Source: Escherichia phage EAWsc9 | Strand: one strand, 5' to 3' | DNA: 64,000 nucleotides | Sequence record: PQ341120.1 | Shown: positions 1,525 to 37,944 of the stretch, one piece after another | Numbering within the stretch: position 1 is the first letter of the stretch | Layout of the letters: each line of letters starts with the position of its first letter | Made by a program: the position numbers and the translations under genes | The notes under the pieces: generated by a model | Databases searched by the model: none | Seen by the model: the letters and a program-made list of their open reading frames with translations, nothing else | What the model was told of the DNA's origin: nothing

Positions 1525-1559
1525 TTTATTCTCCAGTGTTTTATTGTGTAACTCAGTAT

Positions 1560-1600: not shown

Positions 1601-1608
1601 TATGGAAA

Positions 1609-1636: not shown

Positions 1637-1639
1637 AAC

Positions 1640-2973: not shown

Positions 2974-3004
2974 GTATTAATAATAACACGCGTTGTTTGA
3001 AGCA

Positions 3005-3304: not shown

Positions 3305-3306
3305 AA

Positions 3307-5241: not shown

Positions 5242-5301
5242 TTTGTTTTCCTCATGTGTTGATGAAATTCATTATACACCATCCATGGTGAAAGTAAACA
5301 C

Positions 5302-5580
5302 TTAAATTGCTTCTGCAATTGCAGTTTGATTCTGGAAGTCAACCTTGCACGAAACGGTCAAAGTGGCTCCATCAATTTTAAACGGAACAATTGCGAATGC
5401 TGCACCAGGCGTGAGTTGAACAGTGATTGCATCAACTGCATCCGGGAACATGATTTCCAGAATAGCAGACAAACGACCGTGCACTTTTAGTTCAGTCGAC
5501 ACGTCGACGCTTTCGTATAGATAATCAGATACAATCTGACTAAAAAGTACTTTAACAATTTCAGAATATGTAGGAAACAT
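5302..5580 (-). CDS. hypothetical protein, 92 aa
   Basis: track ORF. Confidence 0.55.
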   Translation of the reverse strand: MFPTYSEIVKVLFSQIVSDYLYESVDVSTELKVHGRLSAILEIMFPDAVDAITVQLTPGAAFAIVPFKIDGATLTVSCKVDFQNQTAIAEAI

Positions 5581-22121: not shown

Positions 22122-22129
22122 TATAAATA
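22122..22129 (+). promoter_or_regulatory. late promoter TATAAATA for gene 34
   Basis: exact TATAAATA about 30 nt upstream of the gene 34 ATG. Confidence 0.7.
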
Positions 22130-22160: not shown

Positions 22161-25100
22161 ATGGCCGATATTTTAAAACCAGCATTCAGAGCAACATCCG
22201 GTCTCGATGCTGCTGGTGAGAAAGTCATTAATGTCGCAAAAGCTGATTACTCAGTTTTATCAGACGGCGTTAACGTAGGTTTCTTTATAGAAGAAAACAC
22301 AGTTCAACAATATGATGCAACACGCGGATACAAAAAGAACTTTGCAGTTATTAATGATAACCGTATTTGGGTTGCTCAACGTGATATTCCGGCACCAGCT
22401 GGAGCATTTACCCCTCAGTATTGGTTAGCAACTCGTACTGACCCGAAATGGGAAACTGTTGCATCTCCAACTCGTCAGCTTAGCTCCGGTGAATTTATCG
22501 CAGTCGACTCAGCTGCAAGCTTTACCACATTTACATTGCCTCCGAACCCGACTGATGGTGATACCATCGTTATTAAAGATATCGGCGGTAATACCGGTTA
22601 TAATGAAATTAAAATCCAGTCAAGCAACGTGCCTGGCCAAGGTAACCAAAAGATTGTTCGCTTTGGTAATCAGTATTCAGAAGTTTTAATTACCAAACCA
22701 TTCTCTTATAACATGCTTATCTTTTCAAACCGCTTATGGCAATTTTGGGAAGCAGGTAACGAAGAACGTGGTATCAGAGTAGAACCGTCGACCGGACGTT
22801 TCCATGCACAAGCTGGCGACTTTATTATGCGTCGTTATACAACTGGTGCACCGATTACTTTCATTCTTCCTAAGTATGCAAACCAGGGTGATATTGTCAA
22901 ATCTGTTGATATCGATGGCATGGGGCCAACGTTCCACCTGATGGTTGAAACCTTTGACACCAGTTCCAGTCTTGGGAAAGCTGGCCAGCATCAAATGGAA
23001 TTCCGTACCACAGGTGATGGTTTCTTCGTTTATAATGCTGCCGAAAAACTCTGGTATGTTTGGGACGGTGATTTTAAAACTCGTCTTCGCGTTATTCGCG
23101 ACAGCGTTAAACTTTTACCAAACGAAAGTGTCATTGTATTTGGCGAAGATAACTCAACTCCGGCAACGATTAATATCGATTTGCCAACTAATGTTTTGCA
23201 AGGCGATATTGTTAAGATTGCGCTGAACTATCTCCGTAAATCGCAGACTGTTAATATAAGAGCTGCTGTTGGCGATAAGATTGCAACTGACATTAAATTG
23301 CTGCAATTCCCTAAACGTTCCGAGTATCCACCAGATACAACTTGGGTGATGGTTGATTCATTGACCTTTAATGGCAACATCAGTTATACTCCGGTTATTG
23401 AATTATCATATGCAGAAGATGCAGTGTCTGGAACAAGTTATTGGGTTGTCGCTCAGAACGTCCCGACTGTCGAACGAGTTGACTCATTAAATGATTCCAC
23501 GCGTACACGTCTTGGTGTTATTGCTCTGGCAAACCAGACTCAGGCAAACGTTGACCATGAAAATAACCCAGAAAAAGAACTCGCAATTACCCCTCAGACT
23601 TTAGCCAACCGTGTTGCTAAAGAGAACCAACGAGGCATTGCCAGAATCGCAACGACTGCCCAAGTAAATCAGAACAGTGATTTTGCATTTGTTGATGATG
23701 TAATTATTTCTCCGAAAAAACTCAATGAACGTACGGCAACAGAAACGAGACGTGGGCTCGCAGAACTCGCCACACAGCAAGAAACCAATGCGGGTGTAGA
23801 TGATACCACAATTATAACTCCAAAGAAACTGCAAGCTCGCCAGGGCTCAGAATCGCTATCTGGTATTGTAACTTACGTTTCAACGACTGGTGCAACTCCT
23901 GCCGCTTCGCGTGAATTAAATGGTACAAACGTTTATAATAAAAATACGGTTAATCTGGTTGTTTCTCCGAAAGCTCTTGACCAGTACAAAGCTACTTACA
24001 CTCAGCAAGGCGCGGTTATTCTTGCGGTTGAAAGTGAAGTAATCGCTGGTACTTCTCAATCTGGCTGGGCAAACGCAGTCGTTACTCCAGAAATGTTGCA
24101 TCGCAAAACTGCTCTTGATTCCCGTATCGGTTTAATCGAGATTGCTACTCAGGTTGAAACAGATGCAGGAACCGATTATACCAGAGCTGTGACTCCTAAA
24201 ACGTTAAATGACCGTAAAGCATCAGAAACGTTAACCGGCATAGCCGAGATTGCTACGCAATCAGAATTTGATACTGGAACTGATGATACTCGTATCTCAA
24301 CTCCATTAAAAATTAAAAATAGATTTAATAATACTGCTCGTACTTCTGTTAATGCATTAAGTGGTTTAGTAGAAACAGGGACGCTCTGGGACCATTATAG
24401 CCTGAATATTCTTGAAGCAAATGAGACTCAGCGTGGCACAGCAAGATTAGCAACTCAGGGTGAAGTCAATACTGGCACTGACGATAAAACAATCGTTACT
24501 CCGCTTAAATTGATGTCGAAAAAAGCCACTGAAAACGCCGAAGGTATTGTTCGCATCGCGACAAACGCAGAAGCAACAGCAGGCACATCAAAAGTCTTGG
24601 CCATTAGTCCGTCTGCGCTGAAATATATTGCCCAAACGGAAACAACTTGGGAAGCATCTGAAACACTGCGTGGATTTGTTCGTTTATCTTCCGGTGCAGC
24701 TACTTCGGCCGCAACTACAACGACGGGCGCGGGATTTACATATGAAAATGGTGTGTATACCCCGGACCCAAGTAAACTGGTTAGCTATGCGAAATCTGGA
24801 TATGCAGTTTCGCCTTACGAATTAAACCGCGTATTGCAAAACTTCTTACCGATAAATGCGATGGCTGTTAATGCTGAAAAACTGGATAACCTCGATTCGA
24901 CCCAGTTTATTCGTCGTGATATTGCTCAGACTGTTGAAGGTGTATTAACCCTTACTAAGCAGACAAATATATCTGCTCCGGTTGTATCGACGAGCACTGC
25001 GGTGTTTACTGATGTAACGGCTGGTACTTCGACGTTCGGAACTGTGAATGTTGTTAATGGAACTAACAAGTGGAAAATCACTGCTCCTTCCACCGGAACG

Positions 25101-26117
25101 ACAATGACTATTGGTGATACGACTAACGTATTGACATTAAACACCGCCTCGGGTAATGCTGCAGTATTGAACAACCTTAGCGCCGGAAATGATGTTCAAG
25201 CCAAAAATAATTACGTTCTAAATGGTCGTACTATCGCAACCACGACGGGTGAAGTTTCTGGTGCAACTTTGTCTCTGGGTGATAACTCACAGAATTTAGT
25301 GCTCAAAACTCTTGATGCTGGTAATATCATAGCAAATGGTGGCGGTGCATTTAAAGTTCTGACCGAGAAAAACGCAGTAGAAATTGTTGATAGAAACTTT
25401 GTTAACCAGGCTGGTGATACAATGTCTGGTGTACTCCGTGTGAATGCTCCAGTCCGTGTATTCGGTACGAAACCAAGTCTTATCGCACAAGCTCCGACTG
25501 CGGATACTGTTGGTTTCTGGTCTGTCGATATCAATGATGAACCGACTTATAGCCAGTTCCCTGGTTATTGGACAATGAAGTTAAAACGTCAAGTAAACAT
25601 TGATACGGTTCAAACTAAACCTGCTGGGGTAACTGATGAAGTTTGGAATGCTTCTGGTTGGTTAACTGAAAACGGAACTTTTGCCTCGCCCGCTATTCGT
25701 TATCGTACTGATGATGGTACACTCGGTGATGAAGTATTAGGTAGCTCCGGACAGAAACTGCGCGGAACCTGGTTTGACTATTCAGTTCGTGATAAACAAA
25801 TTAAATATCCTGGTACATTGACTCAGTTTGGTAATACGCTAGATTCGTGCTATCAAGATTGGGTTTGTTATCCAACTGGATTGAACGGTGGTACTATTCG
25901 TTATACTCGTACATGGCAGAAAAATAAATCAGCATGGACGACTTTCGCAATGGTTTACACCGCGGATAACCCTCCGTCTGCAGAGGATGTTGGTGCATTA
26001 CCGGCTGACAACACAACGATGGGGAACTTAACCATTCTTGATTGGTTACGTATCGGTAACGTGCGTATCATCCCAGACCCGACCACTAAATCCGTTAAGT
26101 TTGAATGGATTGAATAA
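22161..26117 (+). CDS. 34: long tail fibre proximal subunit gp34
   Basis: 1318 aa; long identical blocks to remembered T4 gp34 (PTVERVDSLNDSTR.RLGVIALA, TAIITPKKLQARQGSESLSGIV, GNLTI.D.LRIGNVRI.PDP). Confidence 0.95.
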   Translation: MADILKPAFRATSGLDAAGEKVINVAKADYSVLSDGVNVGFFIEENTVQQYDATRGYKKNFAVINDNRIWVAQRDIPAPAGAFTPQYWLATRTDPKWETVASPTRQLSSGEFIAVDSAASFTTFTLPPNPTDGDTIVIKDIGGNTGYNEIKIQSSNVPGQGNQKIVRFGNQYSEVLITKPFSYNMLIFSNRLWQFWEAGNEERGIRVEPSTGRFHAQAGDFIMRRYTTGAPITFILPKYANQGDIVKSVDIDGMGPTFHLMVETFDTSSSLGKAGQHQMEFRTTGDGFFVYNAAEKLWYVWDGDFKTRLRVIRDSVKLLPNESVIVFGEDNSTPATINIDLPTNVLQGDIVKIALNYLRKSQTVNIRAAVGDKIATDIKLLQFPKRSEYPPDTTWVMVDSLTFNGNISYTPVIELSYAEDAVSGTSYWVVAQNVPTVERVDSLNDSTRTRLGVIALANQTQANVDHENNPEKELAITPQTLANRVAKENQRGIARIATTAQVNQNSDFAFVDDVIISPKKLNERTATETRRGLAELATQQETNAGVDDTTIITPKKLQARQGSESLSGIVTYVSTTGATPAASRELNGTNVYNKNTVNLVVSPKALDQYKATYTQQGAVILAVESEVIAGTSQSGWANAVVTPEMLHRKTALDSRIGLIEIATQVETDAGTDYTRAVTPKTLNDRKASETLTGIAEIATQSEFDTGTDDTRISTPLKIKNRFNNTARTSVNALSGLVETGTLWDHYSLNILEANETQRGTARLATQGEVNTGTDDKTIVTPLKLMSKKATENAEGIVRIATNAEATAGTSKVLAISPSALKYIAQTETTWEASETLRGFVRLSSGAATSAATTTTGAGFTYENGVYTPDPSKLVSYAKSGYAVSPYELNRVLQNFLPINAMAVNAEKLDNLDSTQFIRRDIAQTVEGVLTLTKQTNISAPVVSTSTAVFTDVTAGTSTFGTVNVVNGTNKWKITAPSTGTTMTIGDTTNVLTLNTASGNAAVLNNLSAGNDVQAKNNYVLNGRTIATTTGEVSGATLSLGDNSQNLVLKTLDAGNIIANGGGAFKVLTEKNAVEIVDRNFVNQAGDTMSGVLRVNAPVRVFGTKPSLIAQAPTADTVGFWSVDINDEPTYSQFPGYWTMKLKRQVNIDTVQTKPAGVTDEVWNASGWLTENGTFASPAIRYRTDDGTLGDEVLGSSGQKLRGTWFDYSVRDKQIKYPGTLTQFGNTLDSCYQDWVCYPTGLNGGTIRYTRTWQKNKSAWTTFAMVYTADNPPSAEDVGALPADNTTMGNLTILDWLRIGNVRIIPDPTTKSVKFEWIE

Positions 26118-26125
26118 GAGGTAAT

Positions 26126-27256
26126 ATGGAAAAATTTATGGCAGAGTTTGGACAAGGATACGTCCAAACGCCAGTTATATCAGAAAATAATGCCGTTAAA
26201 TTTAAAATGAGTATAGCAGGGAGCTGTACTCTTTCCACGGTGAAATCGTATATCAAATTTCAGGATGAACGAATTGGACCAACTACTTTTGGTAATGGTC
26301 TGACTCTATTGGAAATTGATACAACTACGAATAAAATTGTTAACACGAAAAACTATTCATTAACTAGCACACACGATGCAATCAGTCAGGCATTAATCAC
26401 CTTTGTGGAATCTGTTCCAGCCGGAAGATTGATTGCTTTTATTTCTTCAGGGAAACTAAATGCATCACAGACATTAATTGATTGGTTCCGTAAATGTGGT
26501 TCAAGAGCATTCCCGGAGAAATGGCTGATTGATAAAGTTGATACATCGTACTCGGCCTTTTATATAACCGGCCGGAATGTAATTGTTTCGGAGCATGTTA
26601 AGTATAATGACGGGAAGTTAGTTGAGGATGTTTCGACTCCGCTTGAAGTCATTTATGATACCTTTAGTGATATAGGAGCAACAGGCTATCCTGTACGCAT
26701 AACGGAAGACGAGAGCACGTATTCATCAACAGGTGATGGAACATCAACCACAATTAAAAGGTTCCCCACAGAGGACCTGGTGACTCCTATGGACACCTAT
26801 AACCTTTTACCTTTGGATGTGCTTTACTTGAAGTTTCAGATGTCATTTGACGCTGCACTGAAAGCTGCGGGGACCGTAAGGACTTCGATTCGATTCTTTA
26901 AAAGCCCCAGCACTTCTCCGATATCAAATACGAACATCGATATTGCAGCAAACGTTCCTGCCGGGGCTTGGGCGAGTTTCGAAAGATATGTCGAGATTCC
27001 GCCAGGAGCTGATGGCTTTACAGTAGTAACATCAAGAACTGTAGCTACCGGAACTGGGTCAATACGCAATATTGTTATTGGTGAGATAACCAGAGGTGAC
27101 TCGGCATTCAAACCAGCTGAATTTGGTGTCAACGGCATAAGGATGTCATATGCAAACGATACAACAAATACAGGCAATACAATTGTAACATTCCCGGATG
27201 CACAAGCTCCGAGAGCCGGCAAGATATACGCAGCCGAACTACGAGAAAAACAATAG
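26126..27256 (+). CDS. 35: tail fibre hinge protein gp35
   Basis: 376 aa; N-terminus MEKFMAEFGQGYVQTP and C-terminus KPAEFGVNGIR match T4 gp35. Confidence 0.93.
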   Translation: MEKFMAEFGQGYVQTPVISENNAVKFKMSIAGSCTLSTVKSYIKFQDERIGPTTFGNGLTLLEIDTTTNKIVNTKNYSLTSTHDAISQALITFVESVPAGRLIAFISSGKLNASQTLIDWFRKCGSRAFPEKWLIDKVDTSYSAFYITGRNVIVSEHVKYNDGKLVEDVSTPLEVIYDTFSDIGATGYPVRITEDESTYSSTGDGTSTTIKRFPTEDLVTPMDTYNLLPLDVLYLKFQMSFDAALKAAGTVRTSIRFFKSPSTSPISNTNIDIAANVPAGAWASFERYVEIPPGADGFTVVTSRTVATGTGSIRNIVIGEITRGDSAFKPAEFGVNGIRMSYANDTTNTGNTIVTFPDAQAPRAGKIYAAELREKQ

Positions 27257-27278
27257 GACTCTTCGGAGTCCTTTTTTC
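27256..27278 (+). terminator. rho-independent terminator after gene 35
   Basis: hairpin GGACTC-TTCG-GAGTCC followed by TTTTTT. Confidence 0.7.
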
Positions 27279-27280
27279 GT

Positions 27281-27288
27281 TATAAATA
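27281..27288 (+). promoter_or_regulatory. late promoter TATAAATA for gene 36
   Basis: exact TATAAATA about 35 nt upstream of the gene 36 ATG. Confidence 0.7.
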
Positions 27289-27323
27289 CAAAATATCATA
27301 TGCCGGTTGAAGAGGACTTATAA

Positions 27324-27971
27324 ATGGCAGATTTAAAACTAGGCTCAACAGCCGGAGGTTCGGTCCTCTGGCACCAGGGTAATTTCCCATTAACACCAGT
27401 CAGTAATGACTTATATTTCAAAACTTATAAAATTTATTCAGAATATAACAAGCCACAAGCAGTCGATAACGATTTTGTTTCTAAAGCTCTGGGTGGTAAT
27501 TATAAAGCAAACGTATATTTTGAACAAGGTCTAACATTTAACGATTCAAATGGTTACGGGATTAAGTTAGGAGCGAGAACAGGTGGTGCACCATTTACCG
27601 CATCTTTCCGTATTAAAGGACCATTCGGATTTGAGACTGAAACAGGAACACCATTCGTTATTTTTGACCCTGACACTACGACGGGAGCAAAACGTCTTAC
27701 TGTTATGGGTGATACGTTAGCTCGACAAATTTATGATGAAACAGGTCGTGTATTTTCTCCAGGGAATACTCCGTCAAAAGCTCAAGTTGGTCTTGGTAAT
27801 GTAACTAACCAGCAACAGGTAGAACTAAATAATAGTACATTGCAAACAATGACAGGTAACTTGTCAGCACCTAATTTCTTCTCTAGGAACCCAGCATCAG
27901 ACCCGGCCCATGTGCCTCGTTTTGACCAAATCGTTCTTAAAGACTCCGTACAAGATTTTGGATATTATTAA
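27324..27971 (+). CDS. 36: tail fibre protein gp36
   Basis: 215 aa; MADLK.GST.GGSV.WHQGNFPL and C-terminus PRFDQIV.KDSVQDFGYY match T4 gp36. Confidence 0.93.
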   Translation: MADLKLGSTAGGSVLWHQGNFPLTPVSNDLYFKTYKIYSEYNKPQAVDNDFVSKALGGNYKANVYFEQGLTFNDSNGYGIKLGARTGGAPFTASFRIKGPFGFETETGTPFVIFDPDTTTGAKRLTVMGDTLARQIYDETGRVFSPGNTPSKAQVGLGNVTNQQQVELNNSTLQTMTGNLSAPNFFSRNPASDPAHVPRFDQIVLKDSVQDFGYY

Positions 27972-27979
27972 GAGGCATT

Positions 27980-30900
27980 ATGGCTACTTTAAAACAAATA
28001 CAATTTAAAAGAAGTAAGGTTGCCGGCGTTCGTCCGGCGCCAACAGTTCTTGCTGAAGGTGAACTGGCTATCAACCTGAAAGACCGCTTACTTTTTACTA
28101 AAGATGACACCGGCGCCATTATCGACCTTGGTTTTGCCAAAGGCGGTAATATTGATGGTAATGTTATTCATAACGGTAATTACAATCAAACTGGTGATTA
28201 TACTCTGAATGGTACTTTTACTCAAACTGGTGATTTTAATTTAACCGGCATTGCTCGTGTAACTCGCGATATTATTGCCGCGGGTCAGATAATGACTGAA
28301 GGTGGTGAACTTATTTCTAAGAGTGCATCGACTTCGCATCTTCGTTTTTTTGATGGTGCATCACGCGAACGCGGTATTATCTTTTCTCCTAACAATGCGG
28401 GTTTGACAACTCAGGTAGTTAATATACGAGTGCAAGATTATGCCGCTGGTAGCGAAAGCACTTACGCGTTTTCGGGCAATGGTCAATTTACTTCACCTGA
28501 AGTATCAGCATGGAAATCTATTTCATCCCCACAAATTCTGACTGATAAAGTTATTACAAATGGTAAGAAAGCTGGTGATTACGATATCTATTCATTAGCA
28601 AATAATAATTCTAACACAGATAAAAATAATTTACGTGTTGTACGTACCGACGCAGCCGCCGCAATGCTCCATGAAATTTGTGAAAATAACGGTATCAGTT
28701 GGTATTCCGGTTCAACCCCTACTGATTATATGTTATCTTTTGCTTATTCAGGTGGTTTTCAAGCTGGACATTCGATTGCAGTGGGTATGGAATCAGGGCC
28801 TATGACATATTCAGCCTTAGGTAAAGGTTCTATTGCTCTTGGTGATAATGACACCGGGTTAAAATGGTACCAAGATGGTTATTTCTATGCAGTAAACAAT
28901 GGTACGAGAACTTTCCTTTACAGCCCTGAATCAACTGTAAGCCTTAGAAAAATGGTCATGGGTTATTCTGTAAACGGTAACGATTTAACTACGCCGCCGA
29001 CAGAAAACTATGCGCTTGGTACCGTTGTTACTTATCATGATAATAATGCCTTCGGTGATGGGCAAACTCTTTTAGGATATTATCAAGGTGGAGCATATCA
29101 CCACTATTTTCGTGGTAAAGGCACTACAAACATTAACACCACGGGTGGTTTGTTGGTGACTCCGGGTAATATCGATGTGATTGGCGGTTTAATTAATATC
29201 GACGGCCGCAGTAATGCTTCAACCTTACTGTTTAGTAGCTATACGTCTGGTCAAAGCTCTGTCGATAATATGAATATACGCGTTTGGGGCGATACTTTTA
29301 CCACTGTAGACGGTACTCGCAAAAACGTAATGGAAATATCTGATGCTACTAGCTGGATGCAATATATTCAACGAACAACTGCTGGTAAAGTCGAATCGGT
29401 TCTAAATGGCTCCCAGATTGTTAATGAAAACCTGACCGTAGTAAAAAATGCCACATTTGATGGTACAATCAGCGCACATGGTGAAATTGCAGGTAATGCT
29501 GTTAATGCCCTTAGAATTTGGAACGACGATTACGGTGCTATTTTCCGTCGCTCAGAAAACAGCCTTCATATTATTCCAACTGCCTATGGTGAAGGCAAAA
29601 ATGGCGATATCGGTCTACTTCGTCCGTTTAGTTTGTCTTTAGACACAGGTAAGGTTGTTATTCCTGACCTAGATTTGAGCTATGCTGGATTCCCTGCAAA
29701 CGGGTATATCAGATTTGGCGGTCATGGCGCTGGTGCCGGTGGATACGATATACAGTATTCACAAGCAGCCCCTGTTTTCCAAGAAATTGATGATGACGAG
29801 GTAAGTAAATATTATCCTATTGTTAAGCAGAAATTCTTACAAGGGGAAGCTGTTTGGTCTTTAGGTACTGAAATTAATTCCGGTACTTTTGTTTTACATC
29901 ATTTAAAAGAAGATGGAACACAAAATCATACCTCAAGATTTAATGCTGATGGTACAGTTAATTTCCCGGATAACGTTCAAGTCGGTGGTGGTGAAGCTAC
30001 TATTGCTAAAAATGGTAACATTTTCTCTGATATCTGGAAAACATTTACTTCAGCAGGCGATGTAACTAATATTCGCGATGCCATTGCTACTCGTGTTGCC
30101 AAAGAAGGCGATACAATGACTGGTAAATTGGTCATTGAGGCTCCTGGTGATGCTTTAGTATTAAGAACTAGCGCAGGTAATAGTTCACATATCCGTTCTG
30201 ATGTAAATGGTACCGGCAACTGGTATGTTGGTAAAGGTGGCAGCGATAATGGAATAGGCCTTTACAGCTATGCTACTAACTGTGGCCTGTATATCACCAA
30301 TAACGGTGAATTCAACGTAGACCTTTCTGGTGCTGGTCTGGCAATGCAGATGAATTATTATCGCATGTATGTTAACGGTCGAGCATGGGTTAATACTCAA
30401 GGTCATGGTTACGGAAACCAATGGCAAACAGAAGCTCCTTATTTCGTTGACTTTGGTGAATCCGTTCCTAAAGATAGTTATATGCCAATTATCAAAGGAA
30501 AAAGCACTCTAGCTACTGAAGGATATTCTACTAAAGCAGACTTCGGTATTATTAGATTGGGTGGAGCTGGTACTTGGGGTTCTGCTGTTATTCGTGTGGG
30601 TTCTGCTGAAAGCGGCGATGCAAGCCATCCTAATGCAATATTTGTATTTCAGGCTAATGGTGATTTTGTTGCACCTGCCGGTTTACGAGCCAGCGTTAAC
30701 CTAGGTGTGGGTACAATCCCGGTATGGGGTGGTGCGTCCATTGCTATTGGTGATAATGATACCGGTTTAGTTCATGGCGGCAACAGTCGAATTAATATGT
30801 ATGCTAACGCGCAGCATATTGCGTCATGGGGTACGATGTATCAATCTCATCCCGGCCTTTGGGACTCAAATGGAGCTTTTTGGACAGAAGTCGGCAAAGC

Positions 30901-31309
30901 AATTATTTCTCATGGCCATTTAGTTCAGGCGAATGACAGTTATTCCACATATGTCCGTGATGTTTATGTCCGTTCTGATATTCGCGTTAAAAAAGACCTC
31001 GTTAAATTTGAAAATGCTTCTCAGAAGCTTTCTAAAATTAACGGTTACACTTATATGCAGAAGCGTGGAACGGATGAAGAAGGTAATCAGAAATGGGAAC
31101 CTAACGCTGGTTTAATTGCTCAAGAAGTTCAAGCTATTTTACCTGAATTGGTTGAAGGTGACCCTAATGGTGAAGCTTTACTTCGTTTAAACTATAACGG
31201 TGTAATTGGTTTAAATACAGCTGCAATCAATGAGCACACTGCAGAAATAGCAGAATTGAAATCAGAGATTGAAGAACTTAAAGCATTAATTAAATCATTG
31301 TTAAAATAA
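27980..31309 (+). CDS. 37: long tail fibre distal subunit gp37 with C-terminal intramolecular-chaperone-like domain
   Basis: 1109 aa; N-terminus [32 protein letters not shown] matches T4 gp37; C-terminal ~120 aa ([14 protein letters not shown]...[16 protein letters not shown]...NYNGVIGL...coiled coil) resembles the self-cleaving chaperone domain of other phage fibres. Confidence 0.9.
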
Positions 31310-31312
31310 TAA

Positions 31313-31328
31313 GAGGGGCTTCGGCCCC
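31313..31328 (+). other. GC hairpin between genes 37 and 38, directly before the gene 38 SD
   Basis: AGGGGC-TTCG-GCCCCT with no T-run; GGAGG SD follows. Confidence 0.5.
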
Positions 31329-31340
31329 TTGGAGGTTTAT

Positions 31341-32123
31341 ATGGCAGTAGCAGGACCGTGGATAGGAACTTCTGCATTAGCTAATACAGGACAAAATTGG
31401 ATGGGCGGCGCTGCCCAACGATTGAGAATGGGTGCTCCGTTTTGGATGAGTAATATGGTAGGTCGGTCTGTTGAAGTAATTCACACACTTGGGGCCGACC
31501 ATAACTTTAATGGGCAATGGTTTAGAGACCGTTGTTTTGAAGCCGGTGCTGCACCTATTGTGTTTAACATCACCGGTGATTTAGTATCTTATACCAAAGA
31601 TGTTCCGTTGTTCTTTATGTACGGCGATACCCCTAATGAATACGTTACTTTGAATATTCACGGCGGGGTCCATATGTGGGGCCGTGGTGGTAACGGTGGG
31701 ACCCGTGTTTGGGTAGCGGGTACAAATGGTGGTGATGTAATTCAAAACGACATTGGGGGCAGACTCCGTATTTGGAACTATGGTGTTATAGCTTCAGGTG
31801 GCGGTGGTGGTGCCGGGTGTGCTTCAAATAACTCTTGGCTTGAGGCGGGTACAGCCGGTGGCGGCGGTGGTAGACCATATGGATTAGGTGGTACTAATGG
31901 TGCCGTAAACCCAGGTGGCAACGCTAGTTATACCGGGCCAGGTGGCGGTGGCAGCTTTGGTGGACAGTGGGGCGGTGGTAATGGCGGCGACGCGGGCGGT
32001 GCTGGTGGCGGTGCTTACGGACGAAGCGTTACATACGGCTCACAAGGCGGAGCCGGGCGCGCGGTATTCGGAAGTTCTCCTTCATGGGGTGCGACAGGCA
32101 CTATCTACGGCTCATGGTTATAG
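31341..32123 (+). CDS. 38: gp38 tail-fibre tip adhesin with glycine-rich motifs (T2/T6-type)
   Basis: conserved N-terminal attachment domain ([53 protein letters not shown]) then poly-Gly motifs; ATG at 31341 with GGAGG SD (track starts at a TTG). Confidence 0.88.
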
Positions 32124-32135
32124 TACATAAGCGCT

Positions 32136-32143
32136 ATAAATAT
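32136..32143 (+). promoter_or_regulatory. late promoter TATAAATA for gene t
   Basis: exact match about 18 nt upstream of the t ATG. Confidence 0.65.
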
Positions 32144-32160
32144 CTTTAAAGGAGAAAAGT

Positions 32161-32814
32161 ATGGAACCAAAAGTAGGAATATCAATACCCGACCTACTTT
32201 TTGGACTTCTTGATAGAATTTTTAAAGATAATGCGACCGGGAAAGTTGTTTTTTCCCGGGTACTAGTTATTGTTCTATTATTTTTAATGGCGGTAATCTG
32301 GTATAAAGGTGATGCACTTTTAGATGCGTACAGGGATGCTTCATATGCCTCATACACTGAAATGATAAGGCAAGACCAGGATAACAGATTTAAAATTGCA
32401 GCTATCGAGCAAATCCAGATAGTCCACTCGTCAAGTGGGGCAGACTTTACAGCAATATATTCTTTTAGACCAACTAACCTTAACTACTTTGTGGATATGG
32501 TGGGTTACGAGGGGATATTGCCTGATACAGTCGACGAAAAAAATTTAGGTGGGTTTCCAATAGATAAGACTTCAGCGGAATATTTGGCGGGGGTTAATGG
32601 TAATTATTTTGAATCCAGTGTGGAATCTGTATTCTTACCAACAAAGAAAAAAAGCAGCTTCACATATATGTTCAGCTGCCCATTCTTTAATTTGGAAAAC
32701 GTTTATGCAGGCACAGTCTCACTGTACTGGTATAAGCAAAAACCCGACCTTGGTTTTGATAGGCTTTCTTCTATGTGTGGACAAGCAGGTCGTACGCTCG
32801 GGCGTACACGTTAG
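32161..32814 (+). CDS. t: holin T
   Basis: 217 aa; LLFG.LDR.FKDNATGKV, one N-terminal TM segment, C-terminus C.QA.R.LGR match T4 T. Confidence 0.93.
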   Translation: MEPKVGISIPDLLFGLLDRIFKDNATGKVVFSRVLVIVLLFLMAVIWYKGDALLDAYRDASYASYTEMIRQDQDNRFKIAAIEQIQIVHSSSGADFTAIYSFRPTNLNYFVDMVGYEGILPDTVDEKNLGGFPIDKTSAEYLAGVNGNYFESSVESVFLPTKKKSSFTYMFSCPFFNLENVYAGTVSLYWYKQKPDLGFDRLSSMCGQAGRTLGRTR

Positions 32815-33086
32815 AATCCGGAGGTATACATCATAAGATAACGGTGTATATCTTCGAATCCTTCGTTAAATTGTTCAATGATTTGTTCAATTTCATCTTC
32901 AGATAAACTTTTAAACAATTTGTTAAACGATACATTGTTTAACTCATTCCCATTCTCATTTCTCAATCCCAACTCATTCAAAAACGCGATAAACACATCG
33001 CGCTTCATCGTAATATCTTCCCGGTCGGTTTTAATCAAAATTGAAGTTATAGTAACAATTTCAGAAACGATTTCAAATTTAGTCAT
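32811..33086 (-). CDS. asiA: AsiA anti-sigma-70 factor
   Basis: 91 aa; EI.T..SILIK..REDI...R..FIAFLNE.G and FNEGFE...RYL.MYT match T4 AsiA. Confidence 0.9.
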   Translation of the reverse strand: MTKFEIVSEIVTITSILIKTDREDITMKRDVFIAFLNELGLRNENGNELNNVSFNKLFKSLSEDEIEQIIEQFNEGFEDIHRYLMMYTSGF

Positions 33087-33136
33087 TTTAATTTACTCAA
33101 GTATTCAATAAGACATTCAATTATTCAGTAAGGGTA

Positions 33137-33166
33137 TTATACTATTATTCCTCTGGGTTGTACACA
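33137..33166 (-). promoter_or_regulatory. T4-type early promoter upstream of asiA
   Basis: minus-sense GTGTACAACC ... TAGTATAAT. Confidence 0.55.
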
Positions 33167-33310
33167 TGATTTTCCATCTGTACAACATATTCCTGATACA
33201 TCTGTTCAACTGGTTCCTGGAACTTAAAATCAGCTCCAAGGAATTCCTCAAAGCAAGCCTGCTCGTGCGTACGTTGACCGGTGATGGTGTTCTCTAAGTT
33301 ATGACTCATA
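33146..33310 (-). CDS. small acidic protein, 54 aa
   Basis: ATG with AAGGGA SD; below track cutoff; its 3' end overlaps the asiA promoter. Confidence 0.45.
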
Positions 33311-33398
33311 ATGATTCCCTTTGTGCTTCTGCTTACGTTTGGACTGCATTTTGGTTTTCTTCTTGTCCTTATGGACAGACGCCTTATTGAAATCGTGC

Positions 33399-33677
33399 TT
33401 AGCTACCAGATTGTTCATGCAATTTCCTTAATTGATATTCAAGAGAACTGATAATTTCTTTATTAGTTGCAATATACATATCACGTAGGAAGGGTTTCAG
33501 ACCTTCTCTAACTCTATACGTGTTATCACTAATATCCTTTATATATTCATGGTCTAAAGCATCCCAAGCCGGCTGGTTAACATAAGTTCCCCAGTTGTCT
33601 TCCATCATAGTGTTCAGACGTTTGATATGATTGATATGGGTTTCGATTGCATCAATCTGGAGTTGTTTAAGGTTCAT
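33399..33677 (-). CDS. hypothetical protein, 92 aa (possibly Arn-like by position and size; not verified)
   Basis: track ORF between asiA and motA. Confidence 0.5.
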   Translation of the reverse strand: MNLKQLQIDAIETHINHIKRLNTMMEDNWGTYVNQPAWDALDHEYIKDISDNTYRVREGLKPFLRDMYIATNKEIISSLEYQLRKLHEQSGS

Positions 33678-34288
33678 TAATAAAGGTCCTCTGAATAAAG
33701 TTCTTTTTCACTACCGCCACGTTCAATACGCACTTGATTTGCATAAGTCGCAATAATCATTGCTTCTTCGCGGGTCCAGTAATTGCTGTACTGGTCAATG
33801 AATCCTTGATTATCACCACAAACATGGTCTGACACAAGTTTATCACTTACTTGGTCAAGCACTTCTGCCATATCCTTGGAATAATGTCTGGCACCAGGAA
33901 TAACCAGAGTCCCACCATCTTTTAACTTAAATCGGTTGGCGGCACATACAATCCGTCGCTGATATTTTTCATTGTTATTCCAATGCGCAATCTGCCAACA
34001 GATTTCCGGGACTTCTTCCAGAATATCTTTTTCATCGCATGTGTATCCATGTGCTTTAAATTTTTCAGCGAGGCTTTTGGGGGTTTCACGCGATTCTGGT
34101 GCTGGTAACATTTCTAAACGAGTGATAAACGGATTCATTTCACAATTACCTTCTTCATTATATTCGGTGTAATCACCGTATGCATGTAATTTAGCAGCGA
34201 GACTTTCAGGAGTCTCCCGAGAAAGAGCTTTATCTAACAAGGCCATACGGTCTTTAAAGGATAATGCTTTACCTTTTAATGGATTCAT
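33677..34288 (-). CDS. hypothetical protein, 203 aa, with an internal N-terminal repeat
   Basis: repeats [18 protein letters not shown] / [17 protein letters not shown]. Confidence 0.6.
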
Positions 34289-34632
34289 TTGAAAATCACC
34301 TTATAACCGTTATCTTTAGCGAATTCTTGAATTTTAGCGGCGGTTTCAATTAAATCACCTTTATAATAGGATGATAATTTAATATCAACTGTTTTGCCTT
34401 CGCCATACGAAGTTATATTCACTTTTTCCGTAAAAATAAGCTCAAGAAATCGCAATAGCTGCATACCAAATTCAAGAGTAACATTATCAATCTGGAGGTT
34501 AAGTTGATAAGTTTTCTTAATACCATTCACCAGGGCACAGCGCTCATCCCAAGCGTTACGTTGTTCTTCAATCAATTTAAGGGAATGACCTTCGCCATCC
34601 CAATTTAGTTCCATAGGAATCATTTGAACCAA
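34285..34632 (-). CDS. hypothetical protein, 115 aa
   Basis: track ORF. Confidence 0.55.
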
Positions 34633-34952
34633 CCTTTAACACGTTGCCACAGACTTTTCTGTTGAGCTTTATTAACACCAATTGAGCGAATAACTGGTTG
34701 TGATTCCAGGTATTCTTTATAGTCAGCTTTATAGACTTCATATGCTGCTGGAACAAAGGCACCAATCGCCGCCATGAAGTTCTTGCGAGCACCAAATGGA
34801 GCTACTGCATCATCCTGGCGATGGATAAGATACTGACCAGCTTTGACCTTGACAATAGTCCCAAGGTAAGCGCCATGATACCAAACATCCCAACCCTCTT
34901 GAGTAGGTTCTGCACAAGCACGCAGTTCATTAACAATATTCAGCTTATTCAT
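34620..34952 (-). CDS. hypothetical protein, 110 aa
   Basis: track ORF. Confidence 0.55.
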   Translation of the reverse strand: MNKLNIVNELRACAEPTQEGWDVWYHGAYLGTIVKVKAGQYLIHRQDDAVAPFGARKNFMAAIGAFVPAAYEVYKADYKEYLESQPVIRSIGVNKAQQKSLWQRVKGWFK

Positions 34953-34959
34953 AATTTCC

Positions 34960-35568
34960 TCACTTTAAGATGTTAATAACATGTTGAATGTTTTCAGTTG
35001 ACATATGATTGTCAATGTAGGTATTCAATCCACCTACTTTAACGCTAAATCCCACGTCTGTAAACTGTTTTACTATCTTTTGTTCAGTATTATACGCATG
35101 CACACGAATCTGACCATCACGACGGACATCAATCTGTTTTAATGTCTTGACTCGCTTGAACTTCACAATCAGATTACTGCGGTCTTCTGAAATGCTCTTA
35201 AAGTCAATACCAATAGACAACAATTGCTCTTTGATATATTCTGCAGTCGCTTCCATTTCATCAGTCACACCGCGTTTTGTTCTTGTCTTCTTCACTTCCA
35301 GAAGGTCAGGATTATTTTCATTCGCCCACAGTTCAGCTGCATCCAGAATAAGGTCAACACCTTTTTCTGTAACCATCAAACCATCACCAGAAGCTTCAAC
35401 ATAGTTGTTATTCAACAATGTCTGCACGCTATCAATTGACGTGTTCTGCTGGCCTAAAACAACCTCAGGACGCACGAAGTTGTTTTTGTATACAAACACC
35501 AGAGCATTAACATCAGTCTCATGTAGAGCGTTCTGGGAGCATTTAACGATATAATTTAGCTTGTTCAT
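34960..35568 (-). CDS. motA: MotA middle-transcription activator
   Basis: 202 aa; SGDGL.VTE.G.D and QKFTD.G.S match T4 MotA. Confidence 0.85.
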   Translation of the reverse strand: MNKLNYIVKCSQNALHETDVNALVFVYKNNFVRPEVVLGQQNTSIDSVQTLLNNNYVEASGDGLMVTEKGVDLILDAAELWANENNPDLLEVKKTRTKRGVTDEMEATAEYIKEQLLSIGIDFKSISEDRSNLIVKFKRVKTLKQIDVRRDGQIRVHAYNTEQKIVKQFTDVGFSVKVGGLNTYIDNHMSTENIQHVINILK

Positions 35569-35570
35569 AA

Positions 35571-35798
35571 TTATCCCTTAATAGATTTCATGTAATTTGA
35601 TGCATATGATTGTACCACAGTACGTTTCATATGGGAAGTAGAAACAATAACATCAATCGCTTGTTTACGTTCTTCTTTAGAATTCGCCAGTTTGAACATA
35701 TCAAAGTAGTAATAGCAAGCTTCTTTGTTAGATTTGAATTTAGCGTTAATGTATTCTTGACCTTCATTCTGTTGTGCAGTAAACATTTTATTCTCCAA
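35571..35798 (-). CDS. hypothetical protein, 75 aa
   Basis: track ORF; early promoter upstream. Confidence 0.55.
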   Translation of the reverse strand: MENKMFTAQQNEGQEYINAKFKSNKEACYYYFDMFKLANSKEERKQAIDVIVSTSHMKRTVVQSYASNYMKSIKG

Positions 35799-35832
35799 AG
35801 TTTTTGTGATTCATTGTGTAACTCAGTATGGA

Positions 35833-35868
35833 ATCATTATGCATCAGGTCAAGGGTCATGTACACTAC
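35833..35868 (-). promoter_or_regulatory. T4-type early promoter
   Basis: minus-sense GTGTACATGACC ... GCATAATGA. Confidence 0.5.
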
Positions 35869-35892
35869 TTTTTTAAATATTTTAAAATAAAA

Positions 35893-35912
35893 AAGGACCC
35901 CGACGGGGTCCT
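35893..35912 (-). terminator. rho-independent terminator (hairpin flanked by A/T runs on both sides)
   Basis: GGACCCC-GAC-GGGGTCC. Confidence 0.65.
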
Positions 35913-36009
35913 AGTTTTTATCTATCTTATTACCAATAAACATACCAACAATCACACCTGCGATTGCCGCGAAAATACAAAGCAATGCAAACTCAACTCC
36001 AAAACTCAT
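35911..36009 (-). CDS. 32-aa hydrophobic peptide, translationally coupled to gene 52 (ATGA overlap)
   Basis: MSFGVEFALLCIFAAIAGVIVGMFIGNKIDKN; GGAGG SD inside the gene 52 3' end. Confidence 0.45.
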   Translation of the reverse strand: MSFGVEFALLCIFAAIAGVIVGMFIGNKIDKN

Positions 36010-37385
36010 AGAGCCTCCAAATCATTAAGGTATTCAGTTTTAACGTCAGTTGTCTTCCAGTACTCATGCTCAGCTTTCTTAGCCTTAGCTTCGTCCGCAA
36101 GCTTCTTAGCTTCATCAGAGGTCATATGGTAGATGTTCATTGCCACTAACTTCTCTGCATAATCGCCATATATTTCACTTGCCTGGAGCTCCTCAATCAA
36201 CTTCTTACGAGGTTTCCCCTGGATAACAACCTTACCATCAATCACTTCTTTAATAAAGAAGACTTTCGCGCGGGCCAGTTTAAATGCCGCTTCAGTTTCT
36301 TTAATCTTACTGTCAATTCGCACTTGGACATAAGTCTTACGAACATCAACGAAATCGCGAATCAGGTCAAGCGTGTTGGTGTATTCAGCCAGTTTACCTT
36401 TGTGATTAAGCACAGTTAAGTTCTGGGAGAGCTTCTCAATCAGACCAAAGTCTTTCATGATTTTCTCATGATTCTCTTCTTCAGTGCCATCCAACTTGTA
36501 TTCTTTGCGGAATTTAATCTTAAACCCAAAACCATGCTCGCCACAGTTATCTTTCCAGGTGATAAAACCTTTCTCTTCCAGTGGGTCCAGGATTTTACTT
36601 GTATATTTTTCCAGGTTCCATTGGACCGGGATTTCAGTAATTTCCATTTGAGTCCGGGAAGTCATTTTGTACGTGCCATGAAGTTCATACTTACCAGGCT
36701 CTTCCAGCTCAACAACTTTACCACGGAATTCTGGATATTTTACTTTCGGAGCAACCGGCTCACGACCTTCCACGATAGCTTTAACAGCTTCCTTGACGTC
36801 CTGGAACGAATGAGGAAGGATATCAGTAGCAAAGCCAACAGCAATCCCAGAAGTGGCGTTAAGTAATACAGTAGGAATAACAGGAAGATAAAAAGCAGGA
36901 GGCTTATGTTCTTCATCAGGATGGACCGGAGCATATTCTGTATCCTTAAACAAGTTGTAAAAGTTCTTTGAAACCCTTGCGAATACATAACGAGCTGATG
37001 ATGCTTCTGGCACCATTCTGGAACCAAAGTTGCCTTGCCCATCAAACATGGGGTATTCATTTTTATATGTTGCGACCAAACCAGAAGTTGCTTCTTCCGC
37101 TGATGCTTCGCCATGGTGATAACCATAATCAGCTACACCCCCTGCGATGGATGCAACCTTATGGAATTTATTTTTATCACCACGTGCCAGGTCTAATGCT
37201 CTCGCCATAACAAATCTGTGAACTGGTTTAAAACCATCAATCATGTTTGGGATGGCACGACCTTCCACAGTGTAGATAGCGTATGACAATGCTTCCACAT
37301 CAATAATGTCTTTTAGACTGCGTGGGTTAAGGGTCCCCATGGAATCACTGAACTGTTTGGACATCATACTTAAAACGTCAGACAT
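36006..37385 (-). CDS. 52: DNA topoisomerase II medium subunit gp52
   Basis: 459 aa; RAIPNMIDGFKPV.RFV.ARALDLARG, catalytic-Tyr region and toprim-like blocks match T4 gp52. Confidence 0.95.
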   Translation of the reverse strand: MSDVLSMMSKQFSDSMGTLNPRSLKDIIDVEALSYAIYTVEGRAIPNMIDGFKPVHRFVMARALDLARGDKNKFHKVASIAGGVADYGYHHGEASAEEATSGLVATYKNEYPMFDGQGNFGSRMVPEASSARYVFARVSKNFYNLFKDTEYAPVHPDEEHKPPAFYLPVIPTVLLNATSGIAVGFATDILPHSFQDVKEAVKAIVEGREPVAPKVKYPEFRGKVVELEEPGKYELHGTYKMTSRTQMEITEIPVQWNLEKYTSKILDPLEEKGFITWKDNCGEHGFGFKIKFRKEYKLDGTEEENHEKIMKDFGLIEKLSQNLTVLNHKGKLAEYTNTLDLIRDFVDVRKTYVQVRIDSKIKETEAAFKLARAKVFFIKEVIDGKVVIQGKPRKKLIEELQASEIYGDYAEKLVAMNIYHMTSDEAKKLADEAKAKKAEHEYWKTTDVKTEYLNDLEAL

Positions 37386-37393
37386 ATATCACC

Positions 37394-37534
37394 TTACCAA
37401 ATTAACGAATGTACTGCCATTATAACATCAGAAATAAAAAGCACAACCTGCACTAATGCAAATACAACTCCATAATACAGCGCTACCAATAAGGCAGCAA
37501 GGGCTAACGAGTAGCCCAAGATTTTCTTAATCAT
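37394..37534 (-). CDS. small membrane protein A, 46 aa (MIKKILGYSLALAALLVALYYG...)
   Basis: overlaps upstream ORF B (ATGATTAA); hydrophobic. Confidence 0.45.
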   Translation of the reverse strand: MIKKILGYSLALAALLVALYYGVVFALVQVVLFISDVIMAVHSLIW

Positions 37535-37679
37535 TTTTATCCAATAATTTAAATAGTGTTAAAGTCGCTAATACACCTTGAGCTGTTGACTGCAGAAATA
37601 CTGAAGTTTCTCCAGTTATTAATGTTCCAACAAATAAAAATGACCAACAGAAAAAAGCTACGCCATGAACAAATTTCAT
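37527..37679 (-). CDS. small membrane protein B, 50 aa
   Basis: hairpin plus GAGGAAAAT SD upstream; hydrophobic. Confidence 0.45.
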   Translation of the reverse strand: MKFVHGVAFFCWSFLFVGTLITGETSVFLQSTAQGVLATLTLFKLLDKND

Positions 37680-37680
37680 A

Positions 37681-37735
37681 TTTTCCTCAAGGGCGTCCAA
37701 AGACGCCAGTTAATTTCAGATTATGACGATACCAT
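37681..37735. repeat. copy 1 of about 55-bp repeat R1 (GC hairpin + CTTGAGGAAAAT); copy 2 at 37945..38005
   Basis: near-identical sequence at the two positions. Confidence 0.85.
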
Positions 37736-37789
37736 TACAGCGCTACAGGCAGCAAGGGCTAACGAGTAGCCCAAGATTTTCTTAATCAT
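37721..37789 (-). CDS. 22-aa peptide A' (MIKKILGYSLALAACSAVMVSS), truncated duplicate of A
   Basis: first 13 codons identical to ORF A; looks like a signal peptide with lipobox-like LAAC. Confidence 0.4.
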   Translation of the reverse strand: MIKKILGYSLALAACSAVMVSS

Positions 37790-37944
37790 TTTTTCACGTA
37801 CCGTGCCAGACTTACAATTCCAGAAATAACCCATGCAATAAACATCGCGCCCATGAAAAATGTGCTTGGAGTCCAGACTCCCAAAAAGAAGCAGACTGAA
37901 CAAACCACGGCAATAATAAGTTCAATAAAAGCCAGAATAATCAT
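37786..37944 (-). CDS. small membrane protein B', 52 aa
   Basis: same upstream hairpin/SD module as ORF B; hydrophobic. Confidence 0.45.
   Translation of the reverse strand: MIILAFIELIIAVVCSVCFFLGVWTPSTFFMGAMFIAWVISGIVSLARYVKK

Follow-up and report, generated by a model that had tools for sequence, protein, structure and literature searches.

T2-type tail fibre tips, which combine a self-cleaving gp37 chaperone with a polyglycine gp38, have been crystallised (S16 and PP01) and genetically dissected for decades. Among the phages considered here, the receptor is FadL/OmpF for T2, Tsx for T6, OmpA for LHE83, OmpC for PP01, and Salmonella OmpC for S16. In T2 and T6, gp37 is C-terminally processed and capped by gp38, an adhesin of approximately 260 aa (PMC3157838), and autoproteolytic release of the chaperone has been reported for T2/T6 (PMC3157838) and for S16 (PMC7917993). 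The reported cleavage site of S16 gp37 is DLNVS^SDRRIKK (^, scissile bond), and the tryptophans of S16 gp38 are the prongs that enter the gp37 pockets (PMC7917993). The variable loops of gp38 determine the choice of porin (PMC12892980, PMC12032242, bioRxiv 10.64898/2026.04.02.716166).

The window analysed here is a stretch of 64,000 nucleotides from Escherichia phage EAWsc9 (PQ341120.1). According to ORFs and Pfam, its long-tail-fibre operon follows the T4 order, g34-g35-g36-g37-g38-t, with holin T downstream of g38. The module listed in Table 1 very likely forms the distal tip of the long tail fibre in a JS98-like T-even coliphage and has the T2/S16 plan. The gene g38 lies directly downstream of the S74-bearing g37 and upstream of t, and this layout is common to the eight compared phages (JS98, MN01, IME281, RB69, T2, T6, S16, and LHE83). 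Motifs equivalent to the late-promoter motif ahead of g36 were found ahead of g34 (22122) and t (32135); judging from T4 biology, the motif TATAAATA is the probable start of a g36-g37-g38 transcript. The intergenic hairpin between g37 and g38 was present in the MFE structure (-15.1 kcal/mol), and its stem is preserved via compensatory changes in JS98, T2, T4, and S16. Small minus-strand ORFs (61-80 aa) within g37 and g38 were discounted as spurious, given the strong support for the plus-strand genes that contain them. Neither gp37 nor gp38 matched any NCBIfam model, and neither exact sequence was present in a collection of 15 billion proteins.

Table 1. Features of the EAWsc9 distal tail fibre module (positions in the window)
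Feature	Position	Strand	Basis
T4-type late-promoter motif TATAAATA	27281..27288	+	exact motif, 36 nt before g36 ATG (27324)
g37, long tail fibre distal subunit, 1109-aa precursor	27980..31309	+	ORF, T4 homology, Pfam
gp37 aa 1-60, conserved N-terminus	27980..28159	+	nearly identical to T4 gp37 aa 1-60
gp37 aa 444-550, Gp34_trimer-like shaft domain	29309..29629	+	PF21446, E 7e-8, 33.4 bits
Recombination junction in g37, aa ~891-913	30650..30717	+	blastn change of nearest relative
gp37 aa 916-998, distal tip, ends ...YVRDVYVR	30725..30973	+	aligns with S16 gp37 fragment 6F45_A
Predicted autocleavage site R998^S999	30971..30976	+	alignment with S16 site and GA-1 3gud_A residue 1
gp37 aa 999-1109, Peptidase S74 intramolecular chaperone, 111 aa	30974..31306	+	PF13884
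Intergenic hairpin GGGGC-UUCG-GCCCC	31315..31328	+	just 5' of g38 ribosome-binding site
g38, tail-fibre tip adhesin, 260 aa	31341..32123	+	Pfam, PDB, adhesin alignment
gp38 aa 1-44, N-terminal attachment domain	31341..31472	+	Gp38_N (ORF coordinates 5-44)
gp38 aa 114-260, glycine-rich receptor-binding domain	31680..32120	+	alignment with S16/PP01 structures and eight other adhesins
gp38 variable segment aa 121-128	31701-31724	+	
gp38 variable segment aa 158-172	31812-31856	+	
gp38 variable segment aa 180-200	31878-31940	+	
gp38 variable segment aa 205-210	31953-31970	+	
gp38 variable segment aa 225-235	32013-32045	+	

The initial annotation had described the N-terminus of gp37 as T4-like. Beyond the nearly identical first 60 residues, gp37 shared 35% identity with T4 gp37 over aa 1-641 (E 3e-98), and the T4 homology stopped at approximately aa 641. 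By analogy with T4, aa 1-60 would form the joint to gp36. The Pfam content of gp37 was Gp34_trimer and Peptidase_S74. The Gp34_trimer domain, which also occurs in T4 gp37 and T2 gp37, matched the gp34 structures 4uxe, 5nxf, and 5nxh at approximately 1e-14, and the phage relatives of gp37 carry the annotation 'long tail fibre distal subunit'.

A C-terminal chaperone domain of roughly 120 aa had also been proposed; the domain was indeed present, as Peptidase_S74, but its length was 111 aa when counted from the conserved Ser. The family model scored 47.6 bits (cutoff 22; E 2.1e-12) on aa 999-1058, covering profile positions 1-57 of 58. Members of the S74 class form the very C-terminal end of trimeric fibre or spike proteins and measure approximately 100-150 aa, with a conserved G-[LIV]-[IV]-A-Q core and a helical part at the C-terminus; the gp37 C-terminus had this position, core and helical part, together with a score above the family threshold and a Ser-Lys dyad at the N-terminal boundary of the domain. 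The dyad, on which the proposed self-cleavage depends, consists of S999 and K1004 (30989-30991), and it is accompanied by a GLIAQEV motif and a heptad-repeat C-terminus, the last ~25 aa of which carry hydrophobic residues at a spacing of 3-4. S999-D-I-R-V-K1004 aligned with the S16 cleavage site, with SDERLK of the tail fibre 8jov, and with SDERHK of 3gud, the neck-appendage chaperone of GA-1, in which this motif opens the released chain (chain residue 1); the MYRF autocleavage domain 7dc3 has ADLRAK at the same position. Likewise, GLIAQEV aligned with GVIAQEV of MYRF and GVIAQQI of GA-1. A profile of T-even chaperone domains matched 6f45_A at 5e-51, 7dc3 at 1e-9, 8jov at 2e-7, and 3gud at 1e-3, and in each of the 11 T2-type gp37 proteins compared, 99-113 aa separated SDxRxK from the C-terminus. 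The tip that precedes the domain matched the crystallised 6F45_A from chain residue 23 onward (E 4.9e-42 for aa 916-1109), with an 11-residue insertion relative to S16. By analogy with S16 (PMC7917993), this tip would be the gp38 docking surface once gp37 is cleaved.

The true start of g38 is almost certainly ATG 31341, not TTG 31329 of the mechanical ORF, because a GGAGG Shine-Dalgarno sequence (31331-31335) is placed 5 nt upstream and the resulting MAV... start agrees with the annotated gp38 of JS98, MN01, IME281, RB69, T2, and S16. The 260-aa product matched GP38 (PF05268; E 7e-80, 268.3 bits) and Gp38_N (PF21721; E 4.5e-20, 71.8 bits; cutoffs 25), and, given their Pfam E-values, the S74 and GP38 features are far beyond chance. 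It also matched PP01 gp38 (9V85, 1.3e-74) and S16 gp38 (6F45_D, 1.2e-50) in the PDB and was 46-97% identical to gp38 of T2, T6, LHE83, RB69, and JS98. W7, W20, and W35 of the attachment domain were invariant in 10 adhesins, S16 included. Past ORF position 120 (~117-260 in the 260-aa numbering), the protein is 37% glycine, with GGGGG, GGGG, and GGG runs between the variable segments; the runs were invariant across the compared adhesins, while the intervening segments dropped to 0-40% identity. The binding domain aligned over its whole length with those of PP01 and S16 in the crystal structures, and at the level of alignment the 50-60% sequence identity to solved structures settles the gp38 fold. 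The conserved attachment domain followed by polyglycine motifs and variable segments, as seen in the initial annotation, is thus borne out by the Gp38_N and GP38 matches and the glycine content; the alignment with T2, T6, and S16 adhesins that it called for placed gp38 among the adhesins and delimited five variable segments.

The module had been assigned to the T2/T6 type. The T2 Pfam signature, with an S74 gp37 and an adhesin gp38, agrees with this assignment, but the tip itself is more precisely of the RB69/S16 type. The EAWsc9 gp37 tip is of type A; T2 and T6 have a type B tip and a gp38 N-terminus beginning 'MAVVGVPGW', and their gp38 is 46% (T2) and 61% (T6) identical to that of EAWsc9. 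S16 (6F45) has the same two-gene plan, with a gp37 tip and a 111-112-aa S74 chaperone domain bearing SDxRxK, and its gp38 shares the 'MAVxGPW' attachment domain, the conserved tryptophans, the polyglycine motifs, and the variable loops. However, S16 gp37 has 749 aa compared to 1109 aa in EAWsc9, and the overall gp38 identity is 49%, with 0-33% in the loops. RB69 and IME281 (Mosigvirus/Dhakavirus) share YVRDVYVR^SDIRVKK exactly, and their 111-aa chaperone domain is nearly identical. Their gp38 reaches 96-99% identity in the core (aa 45-113) against only 69-72% in the receptor-binding domain and 9-68% in the loops, and the gp37 shaft shows ~68-76% DNA identity in partial stretches only. The EAWsc9 loop set is shared by JS98 (receptor-binding domain 97% identical), by TH44 and MN01 (99%), and by vB_YenM_P8. 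The full-length gp38 of JS98, TH44, MN01, and vB_YenM_P8 is 91-96.5% identical, and the N-terminal 44 aa of the first three are 59-84% identical. JS98 nevertheless has another gp37 tip/chaperone type (DVNDVYIR^SDIRCKS, 105 aa) and a type B gp38 N-terminus. Yersinia enterocolitica was the isolation host of one close relative that shares the loop set.

On nucleotide comparison, the module is a mosaic of an ECML-359-type gp37 shaft with a TH44/MN01-type tip, chaperone domain, and gp38. By blastn, 27324-30649 was 95.8% identical to ECML-359, while 30718-32814 was 91.4% identical to MN01 and 30740-32814 was 92.5% identical to TH44. In all 11 phages compared, each type of gp37 tip came with its own type of gp38 N-terminus, a co-occurrence that is confounded by shared ancestry. 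Given this perfect pairing and a junction placed immediately ahead of the tip, the docking partners move together as a single cassette. Between T2 and PP01, a need to exchange aa 1-44 along with the rest of gp38 has been shown (PMC12892980).

By analogy with S16, T2, and PP01, gp37 would be made as a 1109-aa precursor, of which the C-terminal 111 residues, the chaperone, would nucleate trimerisation and help the fibre end to fold. It would then cut itself off between R998 and S999, in an autoproteolytic reaction dependent on Ser999 and Lys1004, and the cleavage would expose a flat trimeric ...DVYVR tip. A single gp38 would dock on this tip by its attachment domain through W7, W20, and W35 and display a polyglycine sandwich. 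The five variable loops of this sandwich would touch the bacterial receptor and set the host range. No evidence contradicting the proposed tip architecture was found.

Under a T4-type arrangement, the receptor-binding tip would lie on gp37, and gp38 would be an assembly chaperone absent from the virion. T4 and EAWsc9 do share the operon position of g38 and the homologous N-terminal two thirds of gp37, and 'distal long tail fiber assembly catalyst' is the name given to the homologue in many database records; this label is an annotation inherited from T4. However, the C-terminus of T4 gp37 is a Collar/needle receptor-binding domain without S74, and the Collar and Phage_fiber needle domains present in T4 were not found by Pfam in EAWsc9 gp37, where the S74 chaperone domain takes their place. 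In the Pfam controls, T2 gave the EAWsc9 signature; T4 gp37 matched Collar/Phage_fiber, and T4 gp38 matched no family. The unrelated T4 gp38 chaperone (183 aa) yielded zero BLASTP alignments to EAWsc9 gp38 at E <= 100, whereas the crystallised adhesins 9V85 and 6F45_D matched at 1e-50 to 1e-74. The T4-type arrangement is therefore extremely improbable, and the initial annotation was right to set this locus apart from T4, where gp38 is only a chaperone. Neither of the two outcomes that it had named as refuting, a missing Ser-Lys dyad in gp37 and a gp38 of the T4 chaperone type, was observed. For LHE83, an anti-gp38 serum test of adsorption blocking has been done (PMC10987938). It is also conceivable, though very unlikely, that the S74-like domain is retained at the C-terminus and that gp38 binds elsewhere or transiently. 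The cleavage of EAWsc9 gp37 is a prediction, and the residue preceding the scissile bond is Arg in EAWsc9 and Ser in S16. Nevertheless, gp37 retains both the Ser-Lys dyad and the GLIAQEV core, the context ..VY[VI]R^SD also occurs in RB69, IME281, MN01, T2, T6, and the fPS phages (PMC7917993), and the C-terminal processing of T2/T6 gp37 (PMC3157838) argues for a cleaved tip.

The initial annotation had predicted an OmpA/OmpF/FadL-type receptor, and this specific prediction was unsupported. Across a panel of six characterised adhesins (IME281/RB69, T2, T6, LHE83, and S16; PP01, an OmpC phage, was compared only through PDB 9V85), the EAWsc9 loops showed 0-68% identity, mostly below 40%, and the receptor-binding domain was at most 72% identical to any compared adhesin with a known receptor. 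The hypervariable loop set matched JS98/TH44/MN01 only, and literature searches found no published receptor for gp38 of the JS98, TH44, MN01, vB_YenM_P8, or PhAPEC2 type. A receptor assignment via loop similarity was rejected as unsupported. Such similarity is unreliable in principle, because a single Q206L change has been reported to switch RB51-type gp38 from OmpF to OmpW (bioRxiv 10.64898/2026.04.02.716166). Since the loops are unlike those of the known-receptor comparators, we infer only an outer-membrane protein, which by analogy with S16, T2, and PP01 is most likely a beta-barrel protein. The same architecture could instead recognise LPS core sugars or OmpW/LamB rather than a classical porin. 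This is rather unlikely, since most gp38 proteins characterised in the large screens cited use Tsx, OmpA, OmpF, OmpC, or FadL, and OmpF is the receptor of RB69 and IME281, the characterised relatives closest to EAWsc9 at 69-72% in the binding domain (PMC3157838, PMC6499177). Some credit is nonetheless due to it, as the EAWsc9 loops match no adhesin of known specificity, and gp38 uses the LPS inner core in fPS-65 (PMC7917993), LamB/OmpC in Bp7 (PMC10987938), and, via a single loop change, OmpW in RB68 (bioRxiv 10.64898/2026.04.02.716166). There is likewise a small chance that the JS98/TH44/MN01-type loops recognise an outer-membrane receptor, or a receptor-loop variant, outside those so far assigned to gp38 adhesins; none of the five segments resembles those of the adhesins known to be specific for Tsx, OmpA, OmpF, OmpC, or FadL, and the set also occurs in the Yersinia enterocolitica relative.

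What is new here is confined to the allele and to the way in which the parts are combined; the mechanism is already well studied. The practical value is modest: the g38 start is corrected, and the cleavage site, the docking tip, the glycine motifs, and the variable loops are mapped for EAWsc9. The JS98-type loop set is flagged as one whose receptor appears uncharacterised. The exchangeable unit in this module is the gp37 tip, the chaperone domain, and gp38 together, and in the design of host-range swaps the gp38 N-terminus has to match the gp37 tip type.

Every feature that the initial annotation had described within 27980-32123 was found in place there. The mechanically called g38 open reading frame begins at TTG 31329. 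From the sequence, however, translation almost certainly begins at ATG 31341, since GGAGG lies 5 nt upstream and the MAV... N-terminus matches the annotated gp38 of JS98, MN01, IME281, RB69, T2, and S16; gp38 is therefore 260 aa long. The protein had been regarded as an adhesin with an N-terminal attachment domain and poly-Gly motifs separating variable segments, and both points were borne out. Pfam returned the GP38 adhesin (E 7.2e-80) and Gp38_N (E 4.5e-20) domains, and an alignment of ten gp38 sequences resolved the architecture listed in the table. Moreover, gp38 matched the receptor-binding domain of PP01 gp38 (PDB 9V85, E 1.3e-74; identified as such in PMC12892980) and full-length gp38 of the Salmonella phage S16 (6F45_D, E 1.2e-50), in which the conserved tryptophans are described as prongs inserted into gp37 pockets (PMC7917993). 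T4 gp38 gave no BLASTP alignment with gp38 even at E <= 100 and carried no GP38 domain in the Pfam control scan. Given these results, there is next to no chance that gp38 plays the chaperone role of its T4 namesake. In many database records, T2-type gp38 is still labelled 'distal long tail fiber assembly catalyst', a name carried over from T4.

Features of the long-tail-fibre region and domains of gp38 (aa, protein positions)
Feature	Position	Strand	Description
Late-promoter motif TATAAATA	22122-22129	+	T4-type; directly upstream of g34
g34	22161-26117	+	1318 aa
g35	26126-27256	+	376 aa
Late-promoter motif TATAAATA	27281-27288	+	T4-type; directly upstream of g36
g36	27324-27971	+	215 aa
g37	27980-31309	+	1109 aa
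Hairpin GGGGC-UUCG-GCCCC	31315-31328		tetraloop; between g37 double stop and g38 Shine-Dalgarno
g38	ends 32123	+	260 aa
gp38 attachment domain	aa 1-44		N-terminal; W7, W20, W35 invariant in ten sequences
gp38 conserved core	aa 45-113		ten-sequence alignment
gp38 glycine-rich domain	aa 114-260		glycine runs invariant in ten sequences
gp38 hypervariable segments (five)	aa 121-128, 158-172, 180-200, 205-210, 225-235		between glycine runs
Late-promoter motif TATAAATA	32135-32142	+	T4-type; directly upstream of t
Holin t	32161-32814	+	Pfam Phage_holin_T, E 1.8e-66

The N-terminus of gp37 is T4-like, as had been stated: aa 1-60 are nearly identical to T4 gp37, and homology at 35% identity can be followed as far as about aa 641 (E 3e-98), where it ends. 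At the C-terminus, the proposed chaperone domain is present, but it measures 111 aa from the conserved Ser rather than about 120. Pfam Peptidase_S74 ('chaperone of endosialidase') matched aa 999-1058 over positions 1-57 of its 58-position profile, scoring 47.6 bits against a cutoff of 22 (E 2.1e-12). In the Pfam controls, T2 gp37 also carried this domain, whereas T4 gp37 carried Collar and Phage_fiber domains instead. The crystallised S16 gp37 fragment (6F45_A) aligned with aa 916-1109 (E 4.9e-42). S16 gp37 is reported to be autocleaved at DLNVS^SDRRIKK, which releases 113 residues and exposes the gp38 docking surface (PMC7917993); the equivalent here is DVYVR^S999-D-I-R-V-K1004-K, and the Ser-Lys dyad is thus S999/K1004. 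A profile of six T-even chaperone domains, searched against all PDB sequences, matched S16 gp37 (6F45_A, E 5e-51), the MYRF autocleavage domain (7dc3, E 1.3e-9), a tail fibre (8jov, E 1.9e-7), and the GA-1 neck-appendage chaperone (3gud, E 1.2e-3), each hit having S-D-x-R-x-K and the core G-[LIV]-I-A-Q in register. Chain 3gud_A starts exactly at the aligned SDERHK, and cleavage directly before the Ser therefore fits. SDxRxK lay 99-113 residues from the C-terminus in all 11 T2-type gp37 extracted (this phage, TH44, ECML-359, MN01, JS98, IME281, RB69, T2, T6, LHE83, and S16). We infer from these alignments that gp37 is autocleaved at R998-S999; with the dyad aligned to the S16 site, an S74-like domain that is retained and non-cleaving is very improbable.

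In gp37, GDNDTGL occurs twice, at aa ~287-293 (proximal shaft) and ~922-928 (distal tip aligning with S16), and aa 596-641 and 813-905 form an apparent internal repeat weakly related to T4 gp37 aa 690-777 (E about 0.1).

The genome is that of a JS98-like (Dhakavirus/Gaprivervirus-labelled) T-even coliphage. The upstream 22 kb shares 95-98% identity with the Escherichia phages pEC-M719-6WT.2, TH22, UPEC07, and MN01, and the downstream 24 kb shares 94-98% with MN01, DK-13, and others. The classical long-tail-fibre block occupies 22161-32814 on the + strand. TATAAATA occurs 8 times in the window against 4.8 expected, a count not significant alone, and late-promoter function is suggested by its positions rather than its number; from these positions, g36-g37-g38 may be transcribed together as one late unit, like their T4 counterparts. 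After the g37 double stop TAATAA (31307-31312) comes a hairpin whose stem is kept via compensatory changes in JS98, ECML-359, T2, T4, and S16 (GAGCC-TACG-GGCTC in S16), with a fold z-score of only -1.6. In form it is like the C(UUCG)G hairpins long known in T4 intergenic regions. The hinge protein gp35 has a Pfam ILEI (interleukin-like EMT inducer/PANDER-like fold) match at aa 57-128, marginally over threshold (30.2 bits, cutoff 27; E 6.6e-7). Downstream of t, ~32800-37940 holds - strand genes, comprising asiA (32811-33086) and a number of small ORFs, including 33677-34288 (203 aa) and 34960-35568 (202 aa). Alignment to several of the closest genomes begins only at ~37,940, so close relatives differ in this asiA-to-motA ('arn') block.

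The whole module had no match above about 90% identity in any phage of a 50,697-record collection, and a look-up in about 15 billion proteins found neither protein as an exact sequence. In blastn comparisons, g36 and the first ~890 residues of gp37 (27324-30649) share 95.8% identity with ECML-359, and the gp37 tip, chaperone domain, g38, and t (30718-32814) share 91-92.5% with MN01 and TH44. This places a recombination junction at gp37 aa ~891-913, shortly before the part with homology to the S16 crystal fragment. In the ECML-359 record (OL631482.1), g37 and g38 are unannotated despite intact ORFs (1501-4767 and 4797-5576). Tip type and gp38 N-terminus type co-occurred in 11/11 phages: tips ...Y[VC]RD[VL]xV[RS]^SD pair with 'MAVxGPW' (this phage, TH44, MN01, IME281, RB69, and S16), and tips ...[DN]VYIR^SD with 'MA[VI]VG[IV]PGW' (ECML-359, JS98, LHE83, T2, and T6). 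Although confounded by common descent, this co-occurrence is supporting evidence, not proof, for N-terminal docking of gp38 onto the cleaved gp37 tip; it likewise fits the report that PP01 gp38 is incompatible with T2 gp37 unless its N-terminal 113 aa are swapped (PMC12892980). In JS98, a receptor-binding domain shared with this phage (97%) is combined with the alternative N-terminus and tip type, which indicates a second breakpoint class between the gp38 attachment and binding domains.

In its binding domain, gp38 shares 99% identity with TH44 and MN01, only 69-72% with RB69 and IME281, which use OmpF (PMC3157838, PMC6499177), and 46-54% with T2, T6, S16, and the OmpA-using LHE83 (PMC10987938). 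The variable loops are 0-68% identical, mostly below 40%, to any characterised adhesin compared, and a literature search turned up no receptor assigned to the loop set of JS98, TH44, MN01, and P8. One loop substitution is reported to switch RB51-type gp38 from OmpF to OmpW (bioRxiv 10.64898/2026.04.02.716166), so prediction from distant similarity is unsafe. Of the suggested OmpA/OmpF/FadL-type receptor, an outer-membrane beta-barrel protein stands as a reasonable prior, and the loops do not narrow it further. The same architecture serving a non-classical receptor is unlikely, but clearly less so than either a chaperone-type gp38 or an uncleaved gp37.

Gene order, domain membership, the dyad, the glycine-motif/variable-loop architecture, and the absence of T4-type features were established here. 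Reading across from S16, T2, and PP01, the chaperone domain would nucleate folding of the gp37 trimer end, S999/K1004 would cut between R998 and S999, releasing the 111-aa domain; the tryptophan-bearing gp38 N-terminus would then dock on the exposed tip, and the distal loops of the gp38 polyglycine sandwich would bind the receptor. We consider it highly probable that gp37 removes its own chaperone domain and that gp38 is the receptor-binding tip adhesin. What is new is the allele and its mosaic combination, which is unsurprising to a specialist; this kind of tip is already fully known from crystal structures, genetics, and large receptor screens.
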